Notes: a model not told the origin generated them from the sequence alone. A stretch of DNA of 64,000 nt from Escherichia coli (GCF_011045215.1 NZ_CP049201.1), one strand, 5' to 3'; shown: positions 7,502 through 42,402, numbered from the stretch's first letter. A program made the numbers and translations.

Positions 7502-7578
7502 GGAGCGGTAGTTCAGTCGGTTAGAATACCTGCCTGTCACGCAGGGGGTCGCGGGTTCGAGTCCCGTCCGTTCCGCCA
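7502..7578 (+). tRNA. aspU: tRNA-Asp (GTC anticodon) distal to the rrn operon
   Basis: GGAGCGGTAGTTCAGTCGGTTAGAATACCTGCCTGTCACGCAGGGGGTCGCGGGTTCGAGTCCCGTCCGTTCCGCCA, 77 nt. Confidence 0.95.
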
Positions 7579-13592: not shown

Positions 13593-14333
13593 GTGAAACG
13601 GAAGGTTGTGATGAAACCGGCAAGAGTCCCTCAAACTGTCGTGGCTCCTGATTGCTGGGGCGATTTGCCCTGGGGAGAGCTTTATCGCAAGGCGCTGGAG
13701 CGCCAGCTCAACCCGTGGTTCACTAAAATGTATGGTTTTCATCTGCTTAAGATTGGCAATTTAAGCGCAGAAATCAATTGCGAAGCGTGCGCGGTTTCTC
13801 ATCAAGTGAATGTTTCTGCGCAAGGAATGCCCGTCCAGGTGCAGGCGGACCCACTTCATCTTCCTTTTGCCGATAAATCCGTTGATGTTTGTCTACTGGC
13901 ACATACATTGCCGTGGTGCACAGATCCGCATCGTTTATTGCGTGAAGCCGATCGGGTATTGATTGATGATGGCTGGCTGGTCATTAGTGGCTTCAATCCC
14001 ATCAGTTTAATGGGATTACGCAAACTTGTGCCGGTATTGCGAAAAAACTCGCCCTATAACAGCCGGATGTTTACTCTGATGCGGCAGCTGGACTGGCTCT
14101 CTTTGTTGAATTTTGAAGTGCTACACGCCAGCCGTTTCCACGTTCTCCCGTGGAACAAACACGGAGGAAAACTATTGAATGCGCATATTCCTGCGCTTGG
14201 TTGCTTACAACTTATTGTTGCCCGGAAACGGACTATTCCTTTAACGCTAAATCCGATGAAACAGAGTAAAAACAAGCCACGAATTCGCCAGGCGGTTGGT
14301 GCCACCCGGCAATGCCGTAAACCACAGGCTTAA
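13593..14333 (+). CDS. yafS: Methyltransferase-like protein
   Basis: 246-aa ORF in the conserved position between gloB and rnhA; the true start may be the internal Met (MKPARV...). Confidence 0.8.
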
Positions 14334-14797
14334 GCTTCGACTTGATAGCCCGTATCTTCCAGTGTGGGATTCATCGCTGCGGCACGAGCCAGTTCATCGC
14401 AACGTTCGTTTTCCGGGTGTCCTGCATGGCCTTTAACCCATTCCCATTTGATTTGATGCTGCCCCAATGCAGCATCAAGACGTTGCCAGAGATCGACATT
14501 TTTTACTGGTTTTTTGTCTGCGGTTTTCCAGCCACGTTTTTTCCAGTTATGGATCCACTGGGTGATACCCTGGCGGACATACTGGCTGTCGGTACTCAAA
14601 ATGACTTCGCAATGTTCTTTTAACGCCTCCAGCGCGACAATAGCGGCCATCAACTCCATGCGGTTGTTGGTGGTGCGGGTGTAGCCAGCGCTAAAAGTTT
14701 TCTCGCGTCCGCGATAGCGTAAAATAGCGCCGTAGCCCCCAGGTCCAGGATTACCCAGACACGAACCATCGGTGAAAATTTCTACCTGTTTAAGCAT
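14330..14797 (-). CDS. rnhA: Ribonuclease HI
   Basis: The ORF 14330..14908 contains [26 protein letters not shown]... beginning at an internal Met; trimmed to the 155-aa RNase HI length. Confidence 0.92.
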
Positions 14798-14861
14798 CTC
14801 TGGTAGACTTCCTGTAATTGAATCGAACTGTAAAACGACAAGTCTGACATAAATGACCGCT

Positions 14862-15593
14862 ATGAGCACTGCAATTACACGCCAGATCGTTCTCGATACC
14901 GAAACCACCGGTATGAACCAGATTGGTGCGCACTATGAAGGCCACAAGATCATTGAGATTGGTGCCGTTGAAGTGGTGAACCGTCGCCTGACGGGCAATA
15001 ACTTCCATGTTTATCTCAAACCCGATCGGCTGGTGGATCCGGAAGCCTTTGGCGTACATGGTATTGCCGATGAATTTTTGCTCGATAAGCCCACGTTTGC
15101 CGAAGTAGCCGATGAGTTCATGGACTATATTCGCGGCGCGGAGTTGGTGATCCATAACGCAGCGTTCGATATCGGCTTTATGGACTACGAGTTTTCGTTG
15201 CTTAAGCGCGATATTCCGAAGACCAACACCTTCTGTAAGGTCACCGATAGCCTTGCGGTGGCGAGGAAAATGTTTCCCGGTAAGCGCAACAGCCTCGATG
15301 CGTTATGTGCCCGCTACGAAATAGATAACAGTAAACGAACGCTGCACGGGGCATTACTCGATGCCCAGATCCTTGCGGAAGTTTATCTGGCGATGACTGG
15401 TGGTCAAACGTCGATGGCTTTTGCGATGGAAGGAGAGACACAACAGCAACAAGGTGAAGCGACAATTCAGCGCATTGTGCGTCAGGCAAGTAAGTTACGC
15501 ATTGTTTTTGCGACAGATGAAGAGCTTGCAGCACATGAGGCCCGTCTTGATCTGGTGCAGAAGAAGGGCGGAAGCTGCCTCTGGCGGGCATAA
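14862..15593 (+). CDS. dnaQ: DNA polymerase III epsilon subunit (3'-5' proofreading exonuclease)
   Basis: [19 protein letters not shown]... with Exo motifs; divergent from rnhA as in E. coli; start placed at the internal Met of the ORF. Confidence 0.92.
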
Positions 15594-15725
15594 TTACCTG
15601 TAAAAGGCGCTAAAAATAGCGAGTTGGGCGATTTTTGCAGCAAACGATTCAAAAGATGAGAAAAACCGTTGACGAAGGCCGAGTCAATTCGTAATATTCG
15701 CCTCGTTCCCAACGGAACACAACGC

Positions 15726-15802
15726 GGAGCGGTAGTTCAGTCGGTTAGAATACCTGCCTGTCACGCAGGGGGTCGCGGGTTCGAGTCCCGTCCGTTCCGC
15801 CA
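15726..15802 (+). tRNA. aspV: tRNA-Asp (GTC anticodon); island integration hotspot
   Basis: Sequence identical to the aspU copy at 7502..7578; followed by a terminator hairpin; foreign DNA begins immediately downstream. Confidence 0.95.
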
Positions 15803-15810
15803 CTATTCGA

Positions 15811-15842
15811 GGCCATGCTATTGATTAGCATGGCCTTTTTTA
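15811..15842 (+). terminator. Rho-independent terminator after aspV
   Basis: GGCCATGCTAAT-CAATAGCATGGCC hairpin followed by TTTTTTAT. Confidence 0.7.
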
Positions 15843-15934
15843 TGCTTGTTTTTTTCGGTATGCCATCCAGTATGCCATTGCCGTCTGGCTTGCACTGGCT
15901 CACCTGAGATAGCTTCGGACAACTCACTCACCTC

Positions 15935-16803
15935 TCATCTCGCTGGCAGTGCTCCCGGATAGTGTCGGGCGATGATGTTGTTCAGCTTATCAATCAACTC
16001 AGGTCGCTTGAATACGATGTGTGCAGTTCCCTTCTGAAAATACTTAATCACAAACATCTCATCCTCGTAACGGTTACTGTGCCTGTTCTCATGGATATGA
16101 TCGCTGAGACGACGGGTAACGTCAGCGCGGTTGTAGGGAACCGGTTTGCCATCAAGAAGCATCAGCATACGCTCAAGGTCAGCTAACCGGTCACGCTGCC
16201 AGCCCCAGTTAAGCCCAAATCCCCACCGATCGAACTTGACTAGTCCGGTAACGATAATTTTCGCCCCAAACTTGCAGGGGAATTTGTCTTAAAATTCCAG
16301 CTTAAACCTTTGAACACATTTATCACTCCGCGCTCAAACACCTCGCCCTTGTTCAGATGCAGTTGCTCAAACGTGCTGAGAATATTCTCTTCGCTGACGG
16401 CAGGAATGTCATCCTTTTCCAGACTGTTGTACCACTGGTCACGAGCCTGAGCATCCATGAGCGAAATCATGCCCGACTTCTTCATCAGGTCTCGCCATAT
16501 GCTGCGATCGAGATTACGGGTAATAGCTTTCATCGCCGCTTCTGGTTTCTCCATCAACCAGCAGCCGCAACGGAAATCCTGCTTCATAGCCCAGTCCAGC
16601 GCGGTTTTTCCCCCGATACTGCGGGTCAGCATCGAAACATCGTCCAGTTGTTGCATGAGCACTTCAATCTGCGCCAGCGCGGCATTACGTCCCGTGACAA
16701 TACGCTCAATGCTGGTGGAGCAAATCACGTCGGTGTGGCCGGTTAATACTTCGGGTTTGGTGAGAGTAAGCTCTGACATTATTTCGTTCCTTATATAAAG
16801 CAA
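15935..16803 (-). pseudogene. Island gene split into two ORFs (187 aa and 77 aa), probably one disrupted CP4-type hypothetical protein
   Basis: Two same-strand ORFs (16240..16803 and 15935..16168) separated by a short gap at the end of a CP4-like gene block; family not recognised with certainty. Confidence 0.4.
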
Positions 16804-16859
16804 AGCGCCAGCCGGTGAGGGCTGGCGATTATGAGTAAGTGATGAGTACTGTTCGGTGG

Positions 16860-17063
16860 TTAATCTGTACTGGTCTGTCGCAGAAGTTGAAGATGACGGA
16901 GATCGCGAACGTCCTGACGCGCACGTTCAATCCAGGGCAACAGCACTGCTGAATCGATGTTGTCTTCGTCGTTGTCGAAAATAATCATGTTCCCACAATC
17001 GATGTTGTCCTGCAGCCAGTCAATCAGAACGTTGAGAGCCACTTCGGTGGTTAATTTCTCCAT
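16860..17063 (-). CDS. Hypothetical small acidic protein (67 aa)
   Basis: ORF in operon-like array downstream of the toxin gene; no recognised motif. Confidence 0.4.
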   Translation of the reverse strand: MEKLTTEVALNVLIDWLQDNIDCGNMIIFDNDEDNIDSAVLLPWIERARQDVRDLRHLQLLRQTSTD

Positions 17064-17094
17064 GAGAATATCCTGTGCTTATTGGTGAGAAGAT

Positions 17095-17586
17095 TTACCA
17101 GTCGAAAATGTCAAATCCCGGCAGCACTTCGCCAAAGGCATCCAGATGAACAATGCCAACGGCGTAGCGACGGATAAGCGTCACTACTAACCGACGGCAG
17201 GCTTTCGACAGACCGAGACGTTTGAGGCGTAAGACCGGAAATGACCAGGCACCCAGGTGGAGCAGATAACCCGACCCGGTGTAACTAATCCATTCCGACT
17301 CACCAAAGTCTTCATTCTGGTGTGAAAGAGTAAACAGCAGAGCGTTGTCTTTCTCCGTAATATGCGCGGTACTGCACTGGATGCCATTAACGCGGGCGAC
17401 GGGTGGAAGCGGATCTTCAACGACCAGCTTTCCGGGGGAGTCAGCAACGCGAAGGGAATAACCGTTATCACAGACCACATCGATCAGCGCAGCCAGTTCA
17501 ATGCCGTCAATATCCACAGCGATCCGGCCCGCATTCAGGGCCAGAACGTTGATGGCGTCGGCTTCTACCGTCAGGGATAACTTCAT
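17095..17586 (-). CDS. Hypothetical protein (163 aa) encoded immediately downstream of the CbtA-like toxin
   Basis: ORF whose start overlaps the toxin gene stop by 4 nt (ATGA); no recognised motif. Confidence 0.45.
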
Positions 17587-17960
17587 CGATGCCCCCCACG
17601 GTATTTACCGGTGGTGATGTCGGTCACCGTTCTGTAATCGTTGCGAGCCATCAACCCGGTGGCTTTGCGGGCGCGGAGAATATCGATACTGGTGAGACGC
17701 GGCAACTGTGTTTCTGTACTGAAACCGTGACGATCGATGCGCACCAGATCGTACTTCTCCACAATAAAATTCACGGCGTCGCACAGTGATATACCGGCGT
17801 CGATATGCTCCTGAATCACACCGTCGTTGCCAAACGGCGTGTCGTTAAGCGTCAGACCGTAGTGACGATCCAACAGGTGGCTCAGAAGCCGTTGCCAGAT
17901 CTCCACCGGTGACGGGCGTGATGTAGCCTCCTGCGTTGAGGATAGTGGTTGGGTTTGCAT
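17583..17960 (-). CDS. CbtA/YkfI/YpjF/YeeV-family toxin (type IV toxin-antitoxin toxin targeting cytoskeletal proteins)
   Basis: 125-aa protein with [30 protein letters not shown]...[12 protein letters not shown]...[12 protein letters not shown], closely resembling K-12 CbtA-family toxins. Confidence 0.85.
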
Positions 17961-18010
17961 AGTGGGATCTCTTTGTTGATGGGTAAAACGAGGGTAAGTA
18001 GTAAGAAGCT

Positions 18011-18370
18011 TTACGCGGTTGCCGCTGGTGTCGGATAAATCGCCAGGTATACGTAACCATGCGAGCCGAGGGAGTCGGCCTCGCAGGTCAGCCCTTTTGC
18101 ATAGAGCGTGACACAGTGCTGATGGCGGGGAGTGAGTTCACCGCTGGTGAGCATCAGTTCAAGCTGTTTGAGCAGCAGTGGAAATGCCTGGTCGAGATGC
18201 CGTAAATCCCCGTCGCTGAACTGTCCGGTGATGCTGGCCCGGTCAGCGAGATAATGCAGACAGTTGCCCGACTGCACCAGCCGTGCGCCAAAACAGGGCG
18301 TGATACTGCGTTTAAGCCCCCACCAGGGTTCAGTGATATCGTGGTTTACTGTCGGTATTTTATTCGACAA
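18011..18370 (-). CDS. CbeA/YafW/YfjZ/YeeU-family antitoxin
   Basis: 119-aa protein with PWWGL...[22 protein letters not shown]...[21 protein letters not shown]...[15 protein letters not shown]...[10 protein letters not shown], a near-match to the K-12 YeeU family; located directly upstream of the toxin gene. Confidence 0.88.
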
Positions 18371-18393
18371 TTTTAGCCTTCCTTAAACGTGTG

Positions 18394-18615
18394 TTAATTC
18401 AGCGTGACGCTGCGTAATACGACATAGGGGCCGTTGCGGTTCTGACGGCGTTCAGCGAAGACCGCGAGCACACCGCTGATATCCTGAACCTCCTGCCCAG
18501 CGTAGTGGCAGATGCTGCCAGACCATTTGTATTTACCCGTGCAGAAGGGAAACAACCGGGACTGCGGATGTTGGCGGTATATCGCCATAGCCTGACGTTT
18601 ACTGATAATTTTCAT
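18394..18615 (-). CDS. YeeT/YkfH-like small protein (DUF987-type)
   Basis: 73-aa ORF in the conserved position between the RadC-like gene and the antitoxin gene in CP4-type islands. Confidence 0.6.
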   Translation of the reverse strand: MKIISKRQAMAIYRQHPQSRLFPFCTGKYKWSGSICHYAGQEVQDISGVLAVFAERRQNRNGPYVVLRSVTLN

Positions 18616-18635
18616 TGGGTTATTCTCCTGTTGTG

Positions 18636-19115
18636 CTACAGCCAGCCACGATCTGCAAACGAGGTGATCTCCATGCCGCCGACCACCAGGTGGTCCAGCA
18701 AGCGGATATCAACCAGGTCCAGAGCCTGCTGAATACGCGTAGTGACCTGACGGTCTGCCTTGCTGGGTTCAGCCTCCCCGGAGGGATGGCTATGGGCGAC
18801 AATGACAGCGGCGCAGTTATGCTTCAGACCTGCCTTCACCACTTCGCGGGGATGGACCTGCGTATGGTTGATGGTGCCGGTAAATAGCGTTTCGTGGGCT
18901 ATCAGGCGATGCTGGTTATCGAGAAAGAGCGCGGTAAACTCTTCCCGCTCCAGTGACGCGAGCTGCAGGCGCAGCCAGTCGCGGACGGCATGGCTGGAAG
19001 TAAATGACGCGCCGGTTTCACGTAGCTGGCACTCCAGCAGAGATAAGGCTTTCCTGACTGTCTGCTGGTCGGCAGGGGCTAATTCACGGGCAAACAACGG
19101 TAACTGTTGCTCCAT
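18636..19115 (-). CDS. RadC-like JAB/MPN-domain protein (YeeS/YkfG family)
   Basis: Contains [16 protein letters not shown] (JAMM-like HxHPSG motif); start placed at the internal Met (MEQQLPLF...) of the 193-aa ORF. Confidence 0.75.
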
Positions 19116-19126
19116 AGCGGCTGACC

Positions 19127-19597
19127 TCAGTCGATGATGTGCATGATGGCGTTGCATTCCGCGTGGTTGAGCGCGTAGTCCCGCAGGCGGTAGTAGTGCT
19201 CCGTCATGGCGTCGCATTCGGTACGGCAGGCATGGTGGCTGAAAGCCATCAGACAGACCGCAATCCCTGCAGCTTCGGCACTCATGTCACCGCCGTTGCC
19301 GTTCATCGTGTTAAACAGCGACCAGAGTTCATCGTTCTCCACTTCCGGGGCCATAAACGCGCCGCCGTTGCTCAGCGTGTAAAAATTCCAGATGCCGCCG
19401 CTGTAGTCCGTGCAGAAGCGGTCCATCCACGCGAAGATGGTCGGCTCAAGGATTATCCACTGCGGAATGCTGCCAAAGTGCTGCGGCCAGAAGCTGATGC
19501 GGTTCTCATCGGTTACCGGTATAGCGATAATCTGATGCTGAGCCGCAGCAGGAGCATCTGCTGCGGGTGTGAACAGTGGCAGAGTGTTATCGGTCAT
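19127..19597 (-). CDS. Antirestriction protein (KlcA/ArdB-like; YfjX/YafX family)
   Basis: 156-aa ORF with family-typical residues ([50 protein letters not shown]) in the conserved CP4 gene order. Confidence 0.75.
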
Positions 19598-19864
19598 GTT
19601 GTTTTTCCTCTTTCATTCATTGTGTTGGGGATACCGGTTCAATCGGAGTGACGGACAGGACTGCGCATAGCCGTCTTCATCACAGTGTGAGGGCCAGTGG
19701 CCGTCAGCGAGACTTAACCGGCAGAAACTGAGTTCACCGGGACGATAAAGAAGGTGTGAGCACAGGCGCACAGGTCGTCATCGGAGATGGGGCGGCTGCC
19801 GGGGTTGTTCTCCAGGGGGCAGGATTAATGGCGGCCGGGTGGGCGTTATCAGGCAGTGGTGGCA

Positions 19865-20683
19865 TCAGCTCAGCGCCTGCTGCAGTTTTTCCGCCATCAC
19901 CCAGAGTGCCCGGTTGAGCTTAACGTCGCCGTCGATGCCTTTCACCGCGCGGGTATGGCTGCGTTTGCCTTTGGCAGTACGTCCTGGCAGCCCCCCTTTG
20001 AGCAGGTTCTCCTGGCACCGATTAAAAACTGACCACAGGTCATCCTGACGGTCTTCATAGCGGCGGGGTGTCAGTATCTGCGCTTCCGTCACCGGCTGTT
20101 GCTCTTCCCCGAAGCGGTACGTCAGCGCGGCTCTGGCAAAAGCCTGTTGTGCCGGTGGCGGGAGTAAAAGCGACTGCATCGCATCACGCTTCTCTTCCAC
20201 CCGGTCGAACACACCGAGGACTTCGTAAGCGCCTTCAATCACTTTCTCCACGACATTTCCCCGGTGTGGCACTCGCACCTCGCCAAATGACTGCCCGCAG
20301 ACGAGACCGTTGGTACAGATGGCACGGAAATACCCCGGCAACATCTGGTAACTGGACGAACCGTCATGCGAATTGAGCAGGATAATTTCCGGCACCTGCT
20401 GACCGGTTATCTGCCCGGAGCGACGCAGGCGCAGCATATGTTTCGTATGCTCACGGCGGCTCTGGTCCCTGACGCGGGTCTGGCAGGCAAAGAACGGCTG
20501 GAATCCTTCACGCTGCAGGTTCTCCAGCAGGGTAATGGTCGGTATGTAGCTGTAATGGTCTGAACGGGACACGTGCTTACCTTCCCCGAAGACGCTGGGA
20601 ACAACCTGCATTAATTCTTCATGGGTTAAGGGACGGTCGCGGCGGATCTGATTGATACGGCCAAAGCGGCTGGCGAGTCGCAT
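19865..20683 (-). CDS. DUF932-family protein (YfjQ/YafZ-like)
   Basis: 272-aa ORF with the length and sequence character of CP4-island DUF932 proteins; conserved position upstream of the antirestriction gene. Confidence 0.65.
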   Translation of the reverse strand: MRLASRFGRINQIRRDRPLTHEELMQVVPSVFGEGKHVSRSDHYSYIPTITLLENLQREGFQPFFACQTRVRDQSRREHTKHMLRLRRSGQITGQQVPEIILLNSHDGSSSYQMLPGYFRAICTNGLVCGQSFGEVRVPHRGNVVEKVIEGAYEVLGVFDRVEEKRDAMQSLLLPPPAQQAFARAALTYRFGEEQQPVTEAQILTPRRYEDRQDDLWSVFNRCQENLLKGGLPGRTAKGKRSHTRAVKGIDGDVKLNRALWVMAEKLQQALS

Positions 20684-20802
20684 GGATAACTCCTTATTCT
20701 CTCGATAAAAATACGAAAGGCCACACTTCCCGAAGGAGGTGTGGCCTAGCTCTGTTTATAACATCGTTGCGGGTGGTATGCTGAAGGTAACGGTAGTATG
20801 TA

Positions 20803-21171
20803 TTACGTTGTGGCTCTGCGAATGCCATCGCTGGTGAGATAGCGGTTCAGCCAGTAACCCGCCTCCGGCTCAAAGTTCCTGGCCCGCCAGTGCATCCTGC
20901 CGTCGGTATCTCGGACCACCAGGCGAAAATGTGTGTTCTGGTCATCCTCTGTAGCAACGTTGGTGTATTGTGACGCCACAGCCGCTGACTGCTGGCGGGT
21001 AAACGGACCATCAGGCAGTACAGTAAGTTCTGGCATACAGATTGTTTCCTTAATAACAAAAAGCCCCTGTTGCATAAGCGACAGGGGCTGGAACAGCCGG
21101 ATAATGATGGCATCAGGATGCCTTACCCCCGGCAACCGACACCGGTAGTGGACGATAATACTGCGGGTCAA
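20803..21171 (-). CDS. Hypothetical protein (122 aa)
   Basis: ORF in the CP4-like block; no recognised motif. Confidence 0.4.
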
Positions 21172-21565
21172 ACACGGACAGCGGCAGGTCAGTCTGATAA
21201 CCCTCAGAGGCTTCCGTCGCCTTCATGATTTCGACGGAACTGACGTTTTCCACACATTCATGTTCCAGTGAGGCATCCTGAGTTCGGGAGGCATCGCTGT
21301 CGCCAAACGGCTCAACGCCCATCTCCCCCACAGCCAGTGTATTACCCTGTTTGTCTTTCAGGCGCAGGGAAAGGGTCAGTGGCCCGAAGCCTTCCCCGCT
21401 GCCGCCGTTGTCAAGGCGGAACCGGTAAACACAGATATTACCAGGCACCCACACAGTGTCCGTATTGCGGATACTGATATAACGTTGCTCTTCTGCATGA
21501 GCGGGTGTCAGCAGACACAGACTCAGGGTCGCAGCGGAAATAACACTTTTCAGCATGTTGTTCAT
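21113..21565 (-). CDS. Putative lipoprotein/secreted protein (150 aa)
   Basis: N-terminal signal peptide ([24 protein letters not shown]); resembles CP4-island small lipoproteins (YfjS/YafY-like). Confidence 0.5.
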
Positions 21566-21624
21566 TGATATTGTTCCTTGATTTAACTTGCCTGCTCATC
21601 CGGGCCGGACAGCGCTGATGCCGG

Positions 21625-22134
21625 TTATCCTGCGCCCAGGACTGTCACTGTCAGCGTGACCAGCCAGACCCAGAAGTAAGCCGGTTTCTGTCCGAGGGCT
21701 TTTGCCCGACGCCACAGATAAAACGGAACCAGCCAGGCCAGCCAGCCAAAGGCGGCGGTATCAACGCCGGATTTACGGAGCCGTCGTTCATCCAGATACC
21801 CCAGCGCAATATTCAGTATCAGTGTGATAAACCAGTATTGCCCCTCCGTCACGGCGGCATACGCCTCTTCAAATTCCATTCCGCTCAGCCCGGCCGTCCA
21901 CATCTCCAAGGCATACCCAATCAGGGGCGCAAAGGCCAGCGTCCAGACCACGCTTCCGGGGATACGATTGCCGGGCAGCGCGGGGGGAACCGCACATTGT
22001 TTCAGGACATCTGCCAGCAGCGTGGCTGACAGCGGCTGCCATTCCGTTAGCGGACGTTGAAGGAGCATACCGGAGTACAACAAACAATGGTTAGTGAAGC
22101 CATTGCTATTCAGAATTACTTTATACTCATGCAT
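21625..22134 (-). CDS. Integral membrane protein (169 aa)
   Basis: Several hydrophobic helices (WTLAFAPLIGYALEMW, WFITLILNIALGYL, FGWLAWLVPFYLW, FWVWLVTLTVTVLGAG). Confidence 0.5.
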   Translation of the reverse strand: MHEYKVILNSNGFTNHCLLYSGMLLQRPLTEWQPLSATLLADVLKQCAVPPALPGNRIPGSVVWTLAFAPLIGYALEMWTAGLSGMEFEEAYAAVTEGQYWFITLILNIALGYLDERRLRKSGVDTAAFGWLAWLVPFYLWRRAKALGQKPAYFWVWLVTLTVTVLGAG

Positions 22135-22700
22135 TTTTCCCTGAACATTTGGCCCATCAGCGAACCGGCACTCCGGAGTTCGTTGATCTCATTATTGAAA
22201 TCAAAGCCGCCTTCCGATGGGTGGGCCCGGCGTTCGACAGGAACCTTACTGGTACGCATCCCCGTAACCACAATATGCTGCAGCGTTACTTTTTCCAGTA
22301 CCTGTGCTTCATCAGGCAGAAGATAAGGGAGTAAACCAAACACTTTATGTTCCAGCTCTATTTGTTCTTCTTCTATTTTTTCATCAGAAACCCGCTTTGC
22401 AGGCATTTCCCCTCCATAATTTAGATCAGCTAGAGTCACTGTGTTGGGGTACCCCCTGTCAGCACGGAAAACAATCTCAGTTGCAAGAGAAGCACTTTGC
22501 TCAAGCTTCGTACAGTGCAACTCAGTCGCACGCCGTCTGGCATCTGCAAGTCGATTGTCCTCAGTTTCCTGCTTTTTTACGTCAAGCATGAAGAATGCAG
22601 ACAAAACGTTACCTAGCCCAGTAGCTATAGTTATCAATAAGGTAAATATTACTCCCTGAAGAAGCTTTTTCTTCGAAAATTCCTCAGTCATATTATGCAT
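22116..22700 (-). CDS. Membrane-anchored protein (194 aa) with one N-terminal transmembrane helix
   Basis: TM segment LLQGVIFTLLITIATGLGNVLSAFFML followed by a charged soluble domain; its 3' end overlaps the downstream membrane-protein gene by 19 nt. Confidence 0.45.
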   Translation of the reverse strand: MHNMTEEFSKKKLLQGVIFTLLITIATGLGNVLSAFFMLDVKKQETEDNRLADARRRATELHCTKLEQSASLATEIVFRADRGYPNTVTLADLNYGGEMPAKRVSDEKIEEEQIELEHKVFGLLPYLLPDEAQVLEKVTLQHIVVTGMRTSKVPVERRAHPSEGGFDFNNEINELRSAGSLMGQMFREKCMSIK

Positions 22701-23017
22701 TCCTTTATCTGATTTGATTTATCAACTAAACCGCACGCTTCTCGCTCACAGCGGACCTTTAGCTCGTTCGCTTCGTGCCAGAAACCTTGGCAAAGCCATG
22801 GCTGATGTTATTCAGCTCCAGAAATTGGCTGCGTATAACAGCCCGCTTGCCGTTTGGCTTTTCAGGGCGATTTCAGTAATTGTAACTGCTGCGATGTTCC
22901 CCGAACACGTGGCAGAGTGTGACCACAGGATACTGCGCTTTGAGTTTCCCGATTAATGAGAATTGTTCGGGGAGTCTGGCATCAGGATCGTGGCAGCCTT
23001 CCTGAGAAACTCCCGGT

Positions 23018-24376
23018 TCAAACACATAATTTAGGATCCTGCTGGAGAGAGTAACCCAGTGATTTTGCTCTTCGCTTAAGCCCATCGAGTACGCGACTAC
23101 GGTAGCGTTCTTCATAATAATCTGCGCCAGGATCGGCATATTTTTGACCATACTTCAGGGCATTGTAGAACAGTATTGCCAGTTTTCTTGCTGTTGCAGT
23201 GACTGCTTATGCTTTCCCGATACGTGATGATAATCGACGATAAAAAGCACCCAACGCGGTATCGCTCCGGCCAATTGTTGTAGCTGCCAGCCTGAGTGCC
23301 GCAGCAATTCGACTGGATGAACGCCGTGTTTTCGAGGACAGCACTTTTCCACCGGAGATCTTATTTCCCGGGGACAAACATAGCCACGAGGTAAAATGGC
23401 TCGCATCCGGCCAGCGGTTCATGTCAGTACCGCATTCTGCAATGAATTTTAGTGCCATATAAGGTCCGAACCCATGTATCTGTGTCAGATCTGCCCCCGT
23501 AATTTTCCAGAGTAATGGTCTGACATCAAAGGAAAGCTGATTGGGTTGCTTTGTACGATGTCTGGCGGAGGGCAATACCCCTTCCGGCTCTTCAATTCCG
23601 GTACTGAGCTGCAATAATGAGGTTTCGATTTGAGCATCACATTCGCGGATCTTTTCCTGGTAAAAATCGAAAAATGCAACCGACTGTTCAAGTGCAAAAA
23701 GATGCTCAGGCTGCCAGTTTCCTGTCAGTGCCTGCCGAAGTACTTCTGGCGTCTTTTTACATCTCACATCACGATACTGGATCAACATTGAAGGATCGCG
23801 CTCACCACTGACGATAGCTCTGACGATTGAAAGACCGGTAACGCCAGTGATATCCGATACTGCATGATGTAGTTGCACATTCATCTGCATCAGCGCCTTC
23901 TGCATATGTTGAATATGCGCAGCCCGGTATTCAGTCAGGCGTTCCCGTTGCCTCAGATAAGACCTGAGTACAGAAATATCGTGTTCAGGTCTGAAACTGG
24001 CACGGAGAAGACCAAATGAATGCAACTTCTGCAACCACTGGGCATCGTTGACATCGGTCTTGTGACCGGGAATATTTTTTGCGTCTCTTGCATTAACTAG
24101 GATCACCTTGAAACCAGCTGCTTCAAGGATTTCAAAAGCAGGCAACCAGTAAACGCCGGTAGACTCCATGGCAATGGTCGTAATGTGACAGGTTTTGAGC
24201 CAGTCAGACATCCGCTGAAGATCGCCAGTAAAACTTTGAAAAGTCCTGACAGGCCCGGTGTCAGCATCAGGCGGTACGGCGACAACGTGGAACTCAGCGC
24301 CAATATCAACGCCCGCAGCATGAGGATGGACAATAGACATTCGGGAGGATTTTTTCATGGAAATTTCCTTGCTCAT
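23018..24376 (-). mobile_element. IS110-family transposase gene (about 452 codons) interrupted by an in-frame TAA at 23207..23209; the uninterrupted ORF is 23207..24376
   Basis: Translation shows IS110-type features: VDIGAEFHVVAV near the N-terminus and ...HFTSWLCLSPGNKISGGKVLSSKTRRSSSRIAAALRLAATTIGRSDTALGAFYRRLSSRIGKA, then a stop, then in the same frame AVTATARKLAILFYNALKYGQKY... continuing to 23018. Element boundaries not determined. Confidence 0.7.
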
Positions 24377-25242
24377 TTTCGATGAACGAAGGAGGGGACG
24401 ACGGAGAAATTACCTTCCTGAACGGGATCAAAGTCACCACTGTCGGATCCGCCACAGTCCCTGAACCATGTTTTTTTACGGGGTCATACCACCAAAAGGC
24501 CGACGGCTGCTTCCTTCGCTAAATTATCCTGCCAACTTTTCCGGGGAGTTTCTGAGATTCAGGACGGGGTTTCATCCATGGACAGTTTTTTAATATTTCT
24601 ATTTCAATATGTTGTGGTTTTTTCTTAAGCTCGCGTATTTCGAACTGTTCCGGGTTATGGGGGAGACTTTTGGCATTTTTCCTGTCGTTCATTTCGCAAC
24701 TGCTTTACCCATCGCGTCATGGTAGAAAGACCAACATCCATAGCACTGACCGCAGCCGCAACGGTGTATAGTTCTGGTCAATGACCAGTTGAGCGGATTC
24801 GCGTTTAAACTCTAAGCTGAAATTTCTTCTTTTCATTGAGACATCTGTATCGTTCTGAGGTGAGCATATCACTTCTATGCAGTTGGCCAAATTCAGTGTA
24901 CCACCGCAGATTAATTGATTGTTTTTAAAGTTTTTTAAGGGAAATGCATCCTTTATTCAGTAATGAATTGCTGATTCAGAACAAAGTGAGCATTTTATAA
25001 GTAAGTGATAACTTGACATCATAGTCAGTTAACAAATCGATTTAACCTAAGGCAAACCTGTCAGTAGTTATTGTTCTGTTTCGATTTTTATTAAATTTAC
25101 GATCAGGAAATAACCAAGAGGCTAAAAGTAATAATATCAATACTATCCAACCGATACTTTTTCCTGATTGTATGTCCATTTAGAATACAACTTCGCAATA
25201 TAATGCTAATAGCTTTTCTGCCATGGATGATTGGCCAGATAG

Positions 25243-26790
25243 CTAACATTTAGAATTGTTTAGCATTTCGTTTTTTACAGCAGTTTCAGCAAGCCAGACC
25301 ATAAAATCAATCGCACTCATCGGTTTTGCATAAAGATACCCCTGAATAAATCCAACATCCTTACCAAGAATATATCGAAGCTGCTGTTGGGTACTGACAC
25401 CTTCGGCGATAACATCCAAACCAAGTTTCTGGCATAGTGAGATAATCGTATCCAGAATAGGTACATTGATACCGCTGGTGTCAATCGTATCAACAAAGGT
25501 ACGGTCAATCTTTAAATAATTAGCTGGCAACTGTTGTAGATAAGCAAGTGAACAATAACCAGTACCGAAATCGTCTATTGCTATTAATACACCTTTTTCG
25601 CGCAAAATGGTGAGTTTCTCAGCCACTAGCTCTGGCTGGGTAATCAAGATGCGTTCCGTAACTTCCAACATAAGCTGAATAGTACCGATAGCTGCCATCA
25701 GTGCTTCTACATCCGAAATAAAGTCGTCATGAATCAAATGCTGAGGTGAAATATTAACGCTGATGTAAAAACTTTTGGGCAGTTGCCACTGCTTTACATC
25801 TTGGGCAATAAGTTGAAACAGATGACGTGAGAGCGGAACGATCATACCCTCACTTTCTGCCGCAGTGATGAAAATATCAGGTGTAATAAAGTTTCCTTCA
25901 GGTTGAGGCCAGCGCATTAAAGCCTCAACGCCACCACAACATTTGTGATTGACATTCAATACTGGTTGGTAATGAACAATAAATTGATCGTTTTTCATTC
26001 CTTTTGTTATTTCTCGCGCTAAAGAAAATCTTATCCGGTACCATCGCCGATAAAGCATGATTGTCAGAAAAGATAAACAGATGGATAACGGGATAAAAAA
26101 AAGTAAATTCTGCATCCATCGTGATGTTAACGTTGTGATCGGCGTTGCAACGGCTAGAGAGATTTGCTGATTCGGCAAAGAGTAGTGCTGAGTCATAAAT
26201 ATTCTGGCACCTTCTTTAGGTTGGCTTACAAGTAAATCACCAGTACCAAATCGCAGAGTGAATTTTGCTGATCTTTCTGTAGCCAAGACGTCCATCAGTT
26301 CTTGGATGTACCTTGAGTCAACAATGACAAATGCAGTTTTATTGCCTGTTATCTTTTCTGCGTAGATCACGACTGGTCTTTCGGGACCGCCTGACATACG
26401 AATAAAAGAAGAGACCCATTTCTCAGATAATGGTGTGGGGATTGTTTTGCCTTCAGGCAAAGGAAAAAGCAGTTTCTTCGCACCCGTGACAAAAGAGCAA
26501 GTAATATAACCATTTTCCAACAGTCCAATATCACGAATATAGGGAGTGAAGGCTCGAGTGTGGTTGAGTTCCGCCAGCATACTAGGGCAAGTGACACTGT
26601 CAAGTTGCTTTGCTTTTGAAGTTACGCGCCATGAAGCAACAGACAAATCTTCGCCATAACGAAGCAGGGTATTGGCACTAAAATTAATATCCTGTTTTAG
26701 TTGCATAACACTGGCAAGCAGCGCCAAGAGAGTCATAGCAACCAACGGAATGAATATGGAACCAAGTACAAAAGACCGCTTTACTTTCAT
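25243..26790 (-). CDS. Membrane-anchored cyclic-di-GMP phosphodiesterase (periplasmic sensor domain plus EAL domain)
   Basis: 515-aa ORF with an N-terminal TM helix, a periplasmic domain with cysteines (CSS-motif-like), a second TM helix, and an EAL domain (QPVLNVN...GVEALMRWPQPEG ... IDDFGTGYCSLAYL). Confidence 0.8.
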   Translation of the reverse strand: MKVKRSFVLGSIFIPLVAMTLLALLASVMQLKQDINFSANTLLRYGEDLSVASWRVTSKAKQLDSVTCPSMLAELNHTRAFTPYIRDIGLLENGYITCSFVTGAKKLLFPLPEGKTIPTPLSEKWVSSFIRMSGGPERPVVIYAEKITGNKTAFVIVDSRYIQELMDVLATERSAKFTLRFGTGDLLVSQPKEGARIFMTQHYSLPNQQISLAVATPITTLTSRWMQNLLFFIPLSICLSFLTIMLYRRWYRIRFSLAREITKGMKNDQFIVHYQPVLNVNHKCCGGVEALMRWPQPEGNFITPDIFITAAESEGMIVPLSRHLFQLIAQDVKQWQLPKSFYISVNISPQHLIHDDFISDVEALMAAIGTIQLMLEVTERILITQPELVAEKLTILREKGVLIAIDDFGTGYCSLAYLQQLPANYLKIDRTFVDTIDTSGINVPILDTIISLCQKLGLDVIAEGVSTQQQLRYILGKDVGFIQGYLYAKPMSAIDFMVWLAETAVKNEMLNNSKC

Positions 26791-27344
26791 TATATTAGGC
26801 TCATTATCAATGCAGCTAATCGCTTAATATATATTGGTATCATCATAACAACATTTTTCTTCCATCGGACAGGTAGAATTATATAACCGTCCCTTAAGAG
26901 AAAACAGGTTAGCATACAGCCTCCGGCTTCCCTACCTTAAAAGAGTTACAGTCGAAACTGAAATCTTCGGTTTTTCTTACATCCACAGAGAGGCGCATCA
27001 CCGTAAAAAGAACAATTATATAGAAGTACAGATCGCTATGCATGCAGACAAGCATCCCTGAGCTAATTATTACAGTCGGAAGAAGCATTATACCTGTCTG
27101 GGTATAACAGAATTGTGGGGTCAGCCCAACTATAGGGTAGGATCGTCTACCGTGGTGGGGTCAGTCTAATTGACGACTCGATGCAAGGCTCATTGAGTCG
27201 CATGAAAAACAAGGCGGGGCACAAAAAGTCGCATTTTTAAAGATAATAAAGGGAAATATGTATATTTATCAATGGATATATGGGTTTGTTTCTCCGCATT
27301 TAATACGCGGCGACGTCACTAATCAAACGCCCCTTGCATGACAG

Positions 27345-30300
27345 TCAAAAAGTCACCCTTATCCCCAGCACGGCAGCTGTATCACTGTAGCCCTTATCAC
27401 CAACCTGCTGACCGATGGTACCCCACAGGGAGACATACTTCGACAGTTGGCCTTCAACGCCCGCTTTCAGCTCGCCCACATCGCGGGTGCCCGCCAGATT
27501 GATGTTGTCACCGTTCATCGATACGCCAAACTCTTTACTGTTGTGAAGCCAGTTCGCTTCGATGAACGGTTGGAAGGTACGAGCCATACCCTCGTCAAGC
27601 TGGCTATGCCCCTTGCCAAACAGACGCACGCCGATGCGGGTCTGCACGTTGCCATCACCCTGGCCTTTCACGCGGGTACCATTCGCTTCCTGATGATCGT
27701 CGGCTCTGACGCCCATCCACGTTATTTGCGCTTGCGGTTGGATGTACAGCGCATTACGCTCGCCGGTCCGCGCCAGTTTCCAGGTGTAGCCGGATTCCAG
27801 TGATGCAGTGAAGCCCTTTGATTCATACGCCTCCACGCCAACGCCACGACCGGAAACGGTGTTGTCAAACCAGTTGTACTGCGCCCAGGTATCGACGTAG
27901 GCGCCTTCTGGCGTTTGCAGCCAGGTGCCGTACAGGCCAATGCTGTAACCACTGATGCGGCTGTCGGCGCGGTAGCCGTTAAGCTGGTTTTCGGCCCGAG
28001 TTTTCTGGTTGGCATAGCCTGCCATCAGACCGAGACGGAAACGATCTGCGCTGTCAGATGACCACTCAAAAATGTCGCCGCCGAGCTGCGTCACATTACG
28101 GTTAGCCTGCATTCCCAACAGGCCGCTGCTGTCTTGCTGATGGGTGTGACCGCCAGCATTACGCAGCCAAAGGCTGGTGATGGCTTCCTTGCCCGTCAGC
28201 GTGTCGATATAGTGTGTTTCGCCCTGGCGATCGCGTAAGCGAGTCACAAACAGCGTGTTTGCCGCCGCAAGGTTTGCGATGTAGCTTCCCGCTTCCGGAC
28301 GCAGATCGTCATGCCTGTCTGGAGTAGGGGCCGGGTCTGGATTAGTCTTACCACTGGTCAGATACCAGTTGCCGCTGTTCTCCCCCTGACCGCGGCCAAG
28401 GCTGTAATCGTAAGCGCCTGCCACAATACGGCCAGCCTGGATAAATTCGCCGTCAGAGTGCCCATCAACATGGATCACTTCAATGCCGTTCAGCGTTTGC
28501 GCACCTGTGCCGCCCGCATTGACTACGCTCACAGTGGTTTCACCATGGGTATCCCCTTTTACCACCAGTTCATCGGTAACGGAATGGTCATCACCCAGTG
28601 CGGTATTTATCGTGAGATACCCCTTTCTGCCGGTATAATTACCATTAATAACCAGTTGGTTACCGGCCTGATGACCTTTGAACCCGGTGGCCAGCAAACC
28701 GCTGTTGATAAGGTCTCCGCCCACCGTAAACCGATGATTCTCCTCATGGTGGGCACCCACCTGTAGCGTCCCGGCATTATTGATATTGCCAGCTACACCG
28801 CCAATACCGGCGAGCATTCCCGGCTGAGCGATATCCACCTGCGAGCTGGCAAGCGTCGCCGGTGACGCGTTGTTACCCAGCAACAGGCCACCTTGCTTGA
28901 TGTCCGTCTGGCCCGTCCAGGCGGCGTTGTCGCCCAGCGCGATCGTCCCGGTCCCCAGCTTGATTACGCGACCGGAACCATAAACGGTATTATCCAGTCG
29001 CCAGTTGTTGTCGCCGTTCAGCACCAGAGATCCGCTGTTATGAACTTCCGCCGCGCCGAGGCTGTCAGCCGTTAACGCCGTCATTTGTGAACCCGTATTA
29101 ACGGTGAACTGCCCCGAGAATGCCCGATTAGTCCCTGCCAGCACGACATCGCTGTCGATTAACTCAACCTGTCCGGCATCGCTAAGGCTATTGTAGAGAC
29201 GGCCTGCGGCATATCTGACGGACAGCGTTCCCGCGGCCACGATATTGCCTGTACCCGCCCCCAGTGTATGATCCAGTACTACCTTCGCGCCCTGCATTAT
29301 CGCGGTCGTTGCTTGCAGCTCGGGATTGTTACCAGAGATAGATAAGGTTCCGCCCGCAACGTTGAGCTGCCCGTTACCCGCCAGTACGCCTGATGCCTTA
29401 CCGCCGTTGGTCAACGTGAGTTGGCCGCCATTCAAATGGGTTAGAGAGCCGTTTTCTGCCGTGAGCGTGGCGATGGTTTGCGAATGGCCGCGCATATCAA
29501 ACCCGGTGTCGCCAGCCAGCTTCAGCTCGCGGGTATTCCCGAGCACGTTATCGTTCAGCATCGCCAGATTACCGCTGCGCACGTTGGTGACGCCGCGATA
29601 GTCATTATTCAGATTCGACAGCGTTACCGTCTGGCCTTTCTGGCTGTCAATCGCCAGATCGCCGTCGCCGGTGAGTGTTGCGCTGAGATCGGCCGCATTA
29701 CCGCCTTTTCCGTTCGCATTGAGGATAAGCGCATCAGCTTCTTTGTCCATCAAATCGACATTGGTCAGAGCATAGTTGACGTACAGTCCGTCATCACGGT
29801 CACCGCGGGTAAGACGATAGTCGTAAGTTGCATTCGCAACCACGGCGCCATGCTGGGTAATGTCGGCTTCAGCTGTATCACTGATCACATGGGCGTTCTG
29901 GTCAGTTAACGTTAAGTTACCACCGTGACCGATAACGCCGCCGTCACTGGATACCAGTCGCACAAGAATATTACTCTCATCCTGTTCCAGTAAGGGGATA
30001 AGGGTATCAGGCATTGGCCTGTCATTACTGAAGGTGGTTCCTCTCGTTACCTGTACGGTTCCCTGACCCGAAATATCCAGCTGGCCGGTGGTATGTACCG
30101 TAGCAGGGGAGGTTTTTTGACCCGGGTTAACTTCACCAACAAGCAATGTTCCCCCCTCAAACGTGAGCCCGCCCAGGGTTTGCCGACCCTCGCCAACCTT
30201 CACCAAACTTCCCGATCCCATTTTCATCGACAGGTCTTTTAACGCTGCCGCATTCGTTTCGGCCAGCGAAAACGCCGTATCCTGAAGCGCCACCGTTCCC

Positions 30301-31556
30301 CGGAAGTTATCGGTCAAACGAGATGAGTCAAAAACAAAATCGTTGCCGTTTGTGTTAACGGAAAGCACGCCGTCTCCGGTTAATTTGTTCAGAAAACGCC
30401 AGCGCTGAGATGTCTCTATGGACAGCGTGCCGCCGTTAAGCAATACCGTGTTGGCGCCAATATTTTTTGGGTCCGTTATTAAGAGGCGGGCCGGAGAGTC
30501 GATAGAAAAATAGCCATGAAAATTCGAGTTATCACCGGCAAGCGCGGATAGGCCGTTCAACATATTGACGCGGCCCTTGCCACTCAAATTCGCCGACAGA
30601 GAAAATAAAGCGCTGGCATGATTAAATGTCAGAACGCCTTCCCTGAAGCCGAAAATAATCTCTTTGGTATTAATATTTCCGGCGGCGACAGCCTGCTCGC
30701 CGGCCCTTGCTCCAACGGCAAGCTCTCCTTTCCTGCCTCCTTTGGAAATGATAATTTCTCTGGCGCTTAGCAGGCCATTATCGGAGGCGATCGCTGTGGC
30801 TGTTCCATCCCAACCTACAATAAGCGTCGCGTCCGTCGAGATGACAGAGCCGGCCCCGGCTACCTGAAGCAGATTATCATAGCCGGCAGTTTCCAGCTGA
30901 TTCCCGACCTGAATATTCGCGTCAGCATGCGTCTTACCGCCATTAGTGGTTATCAGCGTGCCTGACCCATAGGTCCCGACTATAATTCTGCTTGCGGTTG
31001 CTAACTCACTTCCCGGACCATCAACATAGATACGTCCTGAGGTCGTAGATGACGGCGTTCTTCGGCTACCTATCCATATCCCGCTCCAGGTATTGTCCGA
31101 GCCGTGATGAAATAACTTTCCTCCCTGAGTAATATTTACCACGCCGCTTCCGTTTCCCATACCAACCTGTAAAGAACGATTTTTTTTGTCAATCGTAACT
31201 ATACTTCCTGGTCCGCTAATATTCAGTACCCCATAGCCATCAGGATTTTTTGAATCTGACTTACCGCCAACCAGTAAAGGATCGGTGTAAGTAGATTTGA
31301 TAATGTTCAGTCTGCCACCATCCGTTATATTGACGGTGCCTGTGGAGCCGTGTATCCCTATTTGAAAAAGCTCAGCTTGAACATAACCACCATTAGAAAT
31401 ATTAAGGGTGCCGTCAGTCTCATCACCAATAAAAATCCACGGTTCTTCCCATAATGAATCTATCTTTAACGCTTGGTTATCATTAATGGTTGCAGCTGGT
31501 GCACCGGTTGCACACATTGATGTGATAATAGCGATGAATAATTTACTTACTTTCAT
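27345..31556 (-). CDS. Type Va autotransporter (AIDA-I-like adhesin family, 1403 aa)
   Basis: N-terminal signal peptide, long Gly/Thr/Asn-rich beta-helical repeat passenger (repeated ...GG.L...G... units), C-terminal beta-barrel translocator ending ...VLGIRVTF with a terminal aromatic residue. Confidence 0.85.
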   Translation of the reverse strand: MKVSKLFIAIITSMCATGAPAATINDNQALKIDSLWEEPWIFIGDETDGTLNISNGGYVQAELFQIGIHGSTGTVNITDGGRLNIIKSTYTDPLLVGGKSDSKNPDGYGVLNISGPGSIVTIDKKNRSLQVGMGNGSGVVNITQGGKLFHHGSDNTWSGIWIGSRRTPSSTTSGRIYVDGPGSELATASRIIVGTYGSGTLITTNGGKTHADANIQVGNQLETAGYDNLLQVAGAGSVISTDATLIVGWDGTATAIASDNGLLSAREIIISKGGRKGELAVGARAGEQAVAAGNINTKEIIFGFREGVLTFNHASALFSLSANLSGKGRVNMLNGLSALAGDNSNFHGYFSIDSPARLLITDPKNIGANTVLLNGGTLSIETSQRWRFLNKLTGDGVLSVNTNGNDFVFDSSRLTDNFRGTVALQDTAFSLAETNAAALKDLSMKMGSGSLVKVGEGRQTLGGLTFEGGTLLVGEVNPGQKTSPATVHTTGQLDISGQGTVQVTRGTTFSNDRPMPDTLIPLLEQDESNILVRLVSSDGGVIGHGGNLTLTDQNAHVISDTAEADITQHGAVVANATYDYRLTRGDRDDGLYVNYALTNVDLMDKEADALILNANGKGGNAADLSATLTGDGDLAIDSQKGQTVTLSNLNNDYRGVTNVRSGNLAMLNDNVLGNTRELKLAGDTGFDMRGHSQTIATLTAENGSLTHLNGGQLTLTNGGKASGVLAGNGQLNVAGGTLSISGNNPELQATTAIMQGAKVVLDHTLGAGTGNIVAAGTLSVRYAAGRLYNSLSDAGQVELIDSDVVLAGTNRAFSGQFTVNTGSQMTALTADSLGAAEVHNSGSLVLNGDNNWRLDNTVYGSGRVIKLGTGTIALGDNAAWTGQTDIKQGGLLLGNNASPATLASSQVDIAQPGMLAGIGGVAGNINNAGTLQVGAHHEENHRFTVGGDLINSGLLATGFKGHQAGNQLVINGNYTGRKGYLTINTALGDDHSVTDELVVKGDTHGETTVSVVNAGGTGAQTLNGIEVIHVDGHSDGEFIQAGRIVAGAYDYSLGRGQGENSGNWYLTSGKTNPDPAPTPDRHDDLRPEAGSYIANLAAANTLFVTRLRDRQGETHYIDTLTGKEAITSLWLRNAGGHTHQQDSSGLLGMQANRNVTQLGGDIFEWSSDSADRFRLGLMAGYANQKTRAENQLNGYRADSRISGYSIGLYGTWLQTPEGAYVDTWAQYNWFDNTVSGRGVGVEAYESKGFTASLESGYTWKLARTGERNALYIQPQAQITWMGVRADDHQEANGTRVKGQGDGNVQTRIGVRLFGKGHSQLDEGMARTFQPFIEANWLHNSKEFGVSMNGDNINLAGTRDVGELKAGVEGQLSKYVSLWGTIGQQVGDKGYSDTAAVLGIRVTF

Positions 31557-31963
31557 AAAAAGCTCGGCGAATAATATGGATTGCCCCGTTGAGGAAAATT
31601 GACAGACGAGTCAGACCTGACAATGCTGCCGGTTCTGTGTGCTTTGAGCTGAAATCCTTATCTGGCAACGTATTAACAAGGTCTTTGTGCTAAGGAAAAG
31701 TTTATGGAAAAAGATCTGAAAAGTGCTTACTGCAAACTGAATAAATCTTACTTTTTTCTTACTTGTTTGACTTCTTTTTAGACTGAACGTAGGGTGCATT
31801 TGAATGAGAGGATAGTGCTGTTTGATTGATCAATAATAAAAATTCAGTACAGTGACGGAATATCTTATTTTATTATTGTCATACACTTCAGCGCGCCGGG
31901 CCGATCATTAGCAGAGAGAGATTATTCATAGAGATAACGAAGAAACCCTATCGTTAAAGTAGA

Positions 31964-33198: not shown

Positions 33199-33396
33199 TA
33201 GCTGTGTAATGGCCGGTCTATATGGGCATTGTGGCGGGTGTTGATAACGGAAGGGACTATTACATGTCCAATTTCGTCTGGAGCTGGCCTGTGTTAATAT
33301 GAACGCTGAAGGTTCCGTAAGGCTCTTAACTCAGTGCCTGGCAAGGCTGTACAACGGCAGAATCGGATACTCAATGAATAAATTGCAGAAGAAACC

Positions 33397-35424: not shown

Positions 35425-35485
35425 AAATTGTACTCCCAGGGAGTGGGGATAAGTAAAATCATATTAAAGAAATTAAGGTTTATCC

Positions 35486-39191: not shown

Positions 39192-39211
39192 TTAATTATC
39201 AGGGAGGCTGT

Positions 39212-42401: not shown

Positions 42402-42402
42402 G

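Follow-up and report, generated by a model that had tools for sequence, protein, structure and literature searches.

A CP4-like island remnant beside aspV of Escherichia coli with its toxin–antitoxin end in native orientation toward the tRNA

In a 64,000-nucleotide stretch of the Escherichia coli chromosome (GCF_011045215.1, NZ_CP049201.1; hereafter the window), the tRNA-Asp gene aspV is directly followed by a block of genes of the CP4 type of prophage-like islands. The block has a CbtA/CbeA toxin–antitoxin (TA) pair at the end that faces the tRNA, and no integrase gene adjoins it. The locus raises the question of whether an island in this position has been turned around or was integrated in this way. 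A first-pass annotation of positions 15803-22700 considered the TA end to be normally tRNA-distal and proposed that inversion, deletion, or serial integration had reshaped the island. We find that the TA end facing aspV is the native orientation. The block is, with high probability, the remainder of a P4/CP4-like island that integrated at aspV in this orientation, decayed, and lost its integrase by deletion.

The genes of the window that lead up to the island are arranged in the order rrnH-aspU-dkgB...rnhA-dnaQ-aspV. The alignment to K-12 MG1655 breaks at position 15808, 6 nt past aspV, and picks up again at 51944, at the end of yafF and yafV, followed by ivy and fadE. About 36 kb of non-K-12 DNA thus follow aspV. 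Since the K-12 homology ends 6 nt past the tRNA, the island starts directly after aspV, as in the first-pass annotation. All genes in the first 6.3 kb after aspV are on the minus strand, and most have full-length Pfam matches (Table 1). The genes of DUF932, antirestriction, RadC-like, DUF987 (YeeT-like), YeeU/CbeA antitoxin, and CbtA toxin proteins, all with full-length Pfam matches, are colinear on one strand in the same order as in CP4-6 and CP4-57. These families had been recognized before; the split DUF4942, DUF957, DUF5983, DUF905, IrmA, and 5'-truncated DUF4339 genes are additions to that list. In RefSeq, DUF4942 is frameshifted in relatives and annotated with an "internal stop" in strain CFT073. 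The backbone stops at the junction within the DUF4339 gene, short of position 22700, and the last part of the originally annotated region is an unrelated hypothetical open reading frame (ORF). The island proteins have 59-81% identity to their paralogues in K-12 CP4-6 and CP4-57, which agrees with the earlier description of the block as a remnant of a CP4-like island. The CbtA-family toxin has 60% identity to YkfI and YpjF, and the YeeU/CbeA-family antitoxin 66-68% identity to YafW and YfjZ. An NCBIfam scan of ten island proteins gave no match.

The window contains one half of an integration site. The insertion of a CP4-type island into a tRNA 3' end with direct repeats is represented by the left attachment site (attL) at aspV, and the right attachment site (attR) is absent from the window. 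A P4-type tyrosine integrase, which such islands encode at one end, is likewise missing from the window: tblastn searches of the 64-kb window with three integrases (IntF and two aspV-island integrases) returned only matches with E>1, which extends the reported absence of an integrase next to the tRNA to the whole window. No integrase is annotated in the matching sequence of 99%-identical relatives, and an Rfam scan of the 15-53 kb part of the window identified the tRNA only. The aspV 3' end, searched down to 12 nt on both strands, has no partial att-like copy downstream of aspV in the window. Its only other occurrence is in aspU (7502-7578), a full identical copy of the tRNA gene located upstream of aspV and downstream of the rrnH 5S gene. 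The statement that the tRNA 3' end is not repeated elsewhere in the window is therefore correct for the island side and incorrect for the upstream side.

The missing half is present in full-length relatives of the island. A survey of 5,426 complete E. coli genomes found the window's aspV junction in 287 and the aspV-island integrase in 41. The junction query also matched about three tRNA-Asp places in nearly all of the genomes. Two junction carriers, PapRG-06-5 and EcPF16, keep the whole element, with lengths of 45,080 and 46,039 bp, respectively. According to blastn, PapRG-06-5 is 99.2-99.9% identical to window positions 2000-38026, and the identity of attL and the backbone block between the window and the two relatives is 99.2-99.5%. 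Both relatives retain the YfjI/AlpA-like module, a 402-amino-acid integrase, and a 14-nt attR, which the window lacks. PapRG-06-5 also retains the GTPase-WYL segment, and EcPF16 is disrupted by insertion sequences (IS) after DUF4339. In PapRG-06-5, the backbone runs on to the YfjI/AlpA-like module and then to the integrase, which is of the P4 type and on the minus strand in window orientation. The integrases of both relatives have Arm-DNA-bind_3, Phage_int_M, and Phage_integrase domains. The HTH(AlpA-like)-YfjI-Gp2(YfjJ-like) block of EcPF16 (L008 2269-6842), where HTH is a helix-turn-helix protein, is on the strand opposite the integrase, whereas alpA-yfjI-yfjJ of CP4-57 (L009 1660-6674) are co-oriented with intA.

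The last 14 nt of aspV, CGTCCGTTCCGCCA (15789-15802), form the att core. Both relatives have a second copy of the core, in direct orientation, next to the integrase. In PapRG-06-5, this copy is positioned about 175 nt beyond the integrase start codon and is followed by a tssA flank, the sequence that directly adjoins aspV in strains without the island, ETEC1717 among them. In EcPF16, which has the same integrase and core, the flank is of the K-12 yafT type, with 76 of 80 nt identical to K-12 from the core on. Direct repeats and exact unoccupied-site flanks, here of two kinds, are what simple integration by site-specific recombination leaves behind. The orientation of the island is therefore native, and neither inversion nor tandem integration is needed to explain it. 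From the repeats and flanks, we propose that the integrase of the full-length relatives acts at these att sites. The aspU and aspV genes are 77 nt long, 100% identical, and 8.2 kb apart; both contain the 14-nt core, and only aspV is occupied.

The attL sites of the window, PapRG-06-5, and EcPF16 are identical except for one single-nucleotide polymorphism. Beyond the core, an imperfect identity block reaches position 15808 (CTATTC). The identity block shared by the unoccupied site (attB), attL, and attR is composed of the 14 nt, one variable base, and TATTC; at the variable position, attB and attL have C, and the attR of PapRG-06-5 has A. This arrangement places the crossover point, as judged from the alignment, probably within TATTC (15804-15808). 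The island supplies the aspV 3' end and terminator, and aspV itself is intact. The island-borne terminator-like hairpin (15809-15837; 15809-15845 with the T-run) differs from the hairpin downstream of aspV in K-12, replaces the native aspV terminator, is unchanged in PapRG-06-5 and EcPF16, and is nearly identical in CFT073. It is followed by two tandem copies of GTATGCCAT, a motif with three matches in the 64 kb, two of them in attL. In the full-length relatives, the interval from the integrase start codon to the attR core contains three copies of the same motif (GTATGCCWT), with similar spacing and the same orientation. The repeats are putative arm-type sites of the integrase. The full-length relatives, with the integrase divergent from the core, its start codon about 175 nt away, and three repeats in between, have the geometry of the rare "opposite, divergent" (OD) integrase-tRNA shape; the window has no integrase. 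The OD shape has been described for the ptwF-intF pair of CP4-6, in which intF is autoregulated (Panis et al. 2010, PMC2951348). The literature found on CP4-6, thrW, and intF includes this paper, but contains no explicit account of the polarity of aspV islands.

The polarity of the aspV island is the same as that of CP4-6 in K-12. There, thrW on the plus strand is directly followed by the minus-strand genes ykfI, yafW, ykfH, ykfG, and yafX ... yafZ and ykfA; intF, likewise a minus-strand gene, is 34 kb away, and after it the last 50 nt of thrW are repeated in direct orientation. In both elements the complete tRNA adjoins the TA end, the backbone is on the opposite strand, and the distal integrase, retained in the full-length aspV relatives, is divergent from a partial tRNA repeat. 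The order of the backbone genes is the same, and the proteins are 60-81% identical. CP4-6 differs in its integration site (thrW), in the length of the repeat (50 instead of 14 nt), in its integrase (IntF has 466 amino acids and 19% identity to the aspV-island integrase), and in the absence of the DUF5983/DUF957/DUF4942 tail. CP4-6 keeps its integrase and attR and has been reported to be excision-proficient (PMC5371832), whereas the element in the window has lost both. CP4-44 is accepted as a member of the CP4 family although it has no integrase (PMC5371832). The missing integrase therefore marks the element in the window as a remnant and does not exclude it from the family.

The closest described counterpart is the island PAI-CFT073-aspV, pathogenicity island III of uropathogenic E. 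coli CFT073, which is listed as a 100-kb pathogenicity island at 248751-348573 (PMC7545054). The two islands share the integration site and attL, including the core, the hairpin, and the two GTATGCCAT repeats. Window positions 14172-16985, from dnaQ through aspV to DUF4942 and DUF957, are 92% identical to CFT073. The DUF4942/DUF957/DUF5983/CbtA end of the CFT073 island faces aspV on the opposite strand, as in the window. The right boundary, formed by a fragment of an integrative and conjugative element (ICE) protein gene, an ISAs1 fragment, and yafV, is also shared; window positions 51197-55377 are 97% identical. No integrase and no aspV core were found in the 12 kb inspected at the yafV-side end of the CFT073 island. 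The CFT073 island is about 100 kb long, carries pic, hma, tosA, and fbp, and has a backbone end broken by IS66, IS110, IS630, and IS21. In contrast, the island in the window has an uninterrupted TA block, and its cargo includes genes of an EAL protein, an autotransporter, and regulators. With the attL junction and the yafV-side boundary in common, the island in the window is of an already known type, represented by PAI-CFT073-aspV. Alignment to other aspV islands and to the K-12 elements thus identifies the same attL in CFT073, PapRG-06-5, and EcPF16, and the same polarity in CP4-6.

In the history that best fits these observations, a tyrosine integrase very probably inserted a P4/CP4-like island by site-specific recombination into the 14 nt that end aspV, and the window contains the tRNA-proximal (attL) end of this island. 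In islands of this type the att core points opposite to the integrase gene, so that integration leaves the complete tRNA next to the DUF4942/TA end; the integrase is then 45-46 kb distant and divergent from attR with its short aspV repeat, with the polarity of CP4-6. Two losses followed. The first, an illegitimate internal deletion of 3.76 kb, took the GTPase-WYL segment. Relative to PapRG-06-5, 3,757 bp are missing, comprising the N-terminus of DUF4339, a YfjS/YafY lipoprotein gene, two hypothetical genes, a WYL/HTH regulator gene, and the gene of the YeeP/YkfA/YfjP-type GTPase expected upstream of the backbone block. The GTPase gene is present in PapRG-06-5 and ATCC 8739. The breakpoints have no microhomology. 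In ATCC 8739, DUF4339 is followed by these genes as well, and the alignment of this strain to the window stops at 22048; the junction produced by the deletion occurs in no complete genome of the collection.

The second loss removed everything distal to the IS3 element, namely the remaining cargo, the YfjI/AlpA-like module, the integrase and attR, together with the neighboring core genes of the type VI secretion system (T6SS). Colinearity with PapRG-06-5 ends at IS3. The part of the PapRG-06-5 island beyond IS3, 19 kb with a fimbrial operon, YfjI, the AlpA-like HTH protein, the integrase, and attR, gave only IS3 and an EAL paralogue as blastn matches in the window. To the right of IS3, the window has the effector end of the T6SS region, whose normal location is between aspV and yafV. 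The absence of the distal island and the presence of the effector end together indicate that the integrase, attR, and T6SS core genes were lost at the IS3 boundary, and the earlier suggestion that deletion reshaped the island is borne out. An IS3-mediated mechanism of the deletion is inferred. IS3 is flanked by ACC on the left and CAT on the right and thus has no target-site duplication. The element that is left is a locked-in remnant with an intact attL, including the core, the island terminator, and the two arm-like repeats; with both the integrase and attR missing, it cannot excise.

Several points weigh against this history. PapRG-06-5 is a relative and not the parent, and it has a T6SS flank unlike the VgrG/Tle1 cassettes of the window; a base-by-base reconstruction of the integrase loss is not possible. 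The IS3 copies of PapRG-06-5 also have no target-site duplication; its absence in the window alone therefore neither dates nor proves an IS3-mediated deletion in this lineage. Of the 41 integrase-bearing genomes, the location at aspV was checked for only a part.

The strongest alternative to a deletion in place is homologous recombination between variants of the aspV region, which would have joined a PapRG-like left part to the right part of a strain with VgrG/Tle1 genes through crossovers at IS3 or ISAs1 copies. The VgrG-Tle1 part matches strains of the 32F4 type and not PapRG-06-5, and the left end of the window is matched at 99.5% identity by strains with quite different cargo, such as the sil/pco genes of ATCC 8739. 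Furthermore, the segment at 38027-39400, formed by the ISAs1 end, PAAR, and the start of VgrG, is 99.8% identical to a cassette of strain ET350 (L010 20001-21375) at another locus, between yncG and pptA (rhsE-type). This identity suggests that ISAs1-flanked VgrG cassettes are exchanged between chromosomal loci. The available data do not separate recombination from deletion in place, and we regard recombination as a credible but rather unlikely origin of the integrase-less state. Because the integrase and attR are lost at the IS3 boundary in either scenario, the conclusion on polarity is unchanged. The ET350 match, the sole near-identical one, was also considered as the un-deleted context of the right flank of IS3 and rejected: the yncG-pptA locus is unrelated and gives no view of the far endpoint of the deletion.

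An inversion would have started from an island with the integrase next to the tRNA and flipped it, bringing the distal TA end to aspV. Such a starting polarity exists in CP4-57, which has homologous backbone and TA genes (59-80% identity) in the order ssrA, intA ... yfjZ-ypjF; its integrase gene adjoins the tRNA-type gene, and its TA pair lies at the opposite end. The view that the TA end is normally tRNA-distal is true of CP4-57, but CP4-6 and the full-length aspV islands have it at the tRNA. Simple integration leaves direct 14-nt repeats and precise unoccupied-site flanks, as observed in PapRG-06-5 and EcPF16, and inversion does not; the polarity is moreover repeated in CP4-6, with its 50-nt direct repeat, and in PAI-CFT073-aspV. 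We consider inversion highly improbable. Equally improbable is the serial integration of two elements at aspV with subsequent loss of the inner integrase: the intact aspV core remains a possible target and the cargo is mosaic and IS-rich, but neither the window nor the islands of the relatives contain an internal aspV core, down to 12-13 nt, and PapRG-06-5 and EcPF16 each have only one backbone between the integrase and DUF4942.

Native orientation with loss of the integrase leaves the TA pair as the tRNA-proximal part of the remnant. The pair has the organization of the type IV CbtA/CbeA (YeeV/YeeU) systems, with the antitoxin gene upstream, a gap of 50 nt, both genes on the minus strand, and both family domains at full length. 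Judged from the sequence, both genes look intact. A promoter-like site, detected as a consensus match, lies just upstream of the antitoxin gene (18397-18370). The toxins CbtA, YkfI, and YpjF bind FtsZ, and CbtA also binds MreB; they arrest growth, produce lemon-shaped cells, and are neutralized by their antitoxins, which neither bind nor degrade them (PMC5624674, PMC5371832). By homology, at 60% toxin identity, the toxin of the window should block FtsZ- and MreB-dependent division and elongation and be neutralized by the antitoxin.

In the collection, genomes that keep the TA-bearing end outnumber those that keep the integrase about sevenfold (287 versus at most 41 genomes). A stabilizing role of the TA pair is possible. 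The asymmetry could result from addiction, in which deletion of the TA block kills the cells and the pair anchors decaying aspV islands together with their cargo; we consider this unlikely. It is equally explained by deletions toward aspV and dnaQ being costly for other reasons, or by shared descent, and the former is a simpler alternative to addiction.

The end of the island near aspV is constant, and the cargo is exchanged: a sil/pco copper-silver cluster is present in ATCC 8739, which has the same junction and no integrase, and in EcPF16, whereas PapRG-06-5 and the window carry the EAL protein, autotransporter, and regulators. The IS911-like fragments in the cargo (22789-22993 and 24586-24904) are 81-82% identical to IS911A/insN of K-12 CP4-6 and are separated by an IS110-family element (transposase gene at 23207-24376). 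The IS911 copy of CP4-6, which is split by IS30, is located just beyond the GTPase and perR genes, in a comparable position of the backbone. Within the T6SS effector region, DUF4123 is likely frameshifted, with overlapping ORFs at 43737-44198 and 44111-44506 in place of a single 771-bp coding sequence in 32F4. Farther to the right, a 101-bp unit resembling repetitive extragenic palindromic sequences and bacterial interspersed mosaic elements (REP/BIME; 93% matches) is repeated 3.9 times in tandem at positions 60747-61135, directly after rayT (60221-60718), which encodes a REP-associated tyrosine transposase; further REP/BIME-like copies are at about 60041-60136. A second (Flag-2, lateral) flagellar cluster starts at 61138-64000 with a FlhA-like ORF of 709 amino acids on the minus strand, and is annotated after rayT/yafL in ATCC 8739 and 32F4.

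Table 1 Features of the aspV island and its flanks in the window (strand "." where none applies; CDS, coding sequence)
Feature	Position	Strand	Basis
aspV tRNA-Asp(GUC), intact	15726-15802	+	ARAGORN, Rfam tRNA
Island-borne terminator-like hairpin, 12-bp stem and T-run	15809-15845	+	Terminator scan
Tandem pair of GTATGCCAT repeats spaced by 12 nt; candidate arm-type sites for the integrase in attL (P' arm)	15858-15878 (starts 15858, 15870)	+	Motif scan
DUF4942 pseudogene, terminal backbone gene, two ORFs (16240-16803, 15935-16168)	15935-16803	-	Pfam profile positions 1-91 and 117-189 on separate ORFs
DUF957 small protein	16860-17063	-	RefSeq name in 99%-identical relatives; no Pfam/NCBIfam match here
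DUF5983 (YeeW-like)	17095-17586	-	Pfam DUF5983_N, DUF5983
CbtA-family toxin, 125 amino acids, full length	17583-17960	-	Pfam CbtA_toxin 1-112/112, E 3e-50
YeeU/CbeA-family antitoxin, 119 amino acids, TTG start	18011-18370	-	Pfam CbeA_antitoxin 1-100/101, E 5e-52
DUF987 (YeeT/YkfH-like)	18394-18615	-	Pfam; 73% identity to YkfH
RadC-like JAB protein (YeeS/YkfG-like)	18636-19115	-	Pfam RadC E 2e-44; 60% identity to YkfG
Antirestriction protein (YafX/LfgA-like)	19127-19597	-	Pfam Antirestrict; 71% identity to YafX
DUF932 (YafZ/YfjQ-like)	19865-20683	-	Pfam E 2e-50; ~80% identity to YafZ/YfjQ
DUF905	20803-21036	-	Pfam; RefSeq name in relatives
IrmA-family	21113-21565	-	Pfam; RefSeq name in relatives
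DUF4339, 5'-truncated by internal deletion	21625-22047	-	RefSeq CDS in PapRG-06-5 (L001 19626-20168) crosses breakpoint L001 20048
Junction of 3,757-bp deletion relative to PapRG-06-5	22047/22048	.	blastn of window versus L001
Variable cargo common to PapRG-06-5	22116-36765	.	99.9% identity to L001 23806-39784 (RefSeq annotation), Pfam
Unrelated hypothetical ORF in cargo	22116-22700		
IS911-like fragments split by IS110	22789-24904		
EAL/CSS phosphodiesterase	25243-26790	-	
Autotransporter, 1403 amino acids	27345-31556	-	
Remaining cargo: winged HTH regulators, Ail/Lom, DUF4156, LuxR, methyltransferase fragment	within 22116-36765		
IS3, 1258 bp, end of colinearity with full-length island	36769-38026	-	
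Ancestral flank, outside CP4-like element	38027-51943	.	Pfam; 97.5% match to strain 32F4, with its annotation; K-12 alignment
ISAs1 3' fragment	right of IS3		
PAAR	38874-39191		
VgrG	39212-41611		
M35 peptidase, DUF4123, DUF3304, Tle1	after VgrG (Tle1 to 47440)		
IS21-family element	48342-50143		
DUF2859 ICE-protein fragment	51219-51731		
ISAs1 fragment	after DUF2859, before yafV boundary		

The finding has little importance beyond correct annotation. It defines the att core, candidate arm sites, and reference copies of the whole element (PapRG-06-5 and EcPF16), which are useful for work on the mobilization of aspV islands or on stabilization by CbtA-family TA pairs. A TA end that faces the tRNA without an adjacent integrase is normal for aspV islands and CP4-6, and genome scans should not report it as rearranged.

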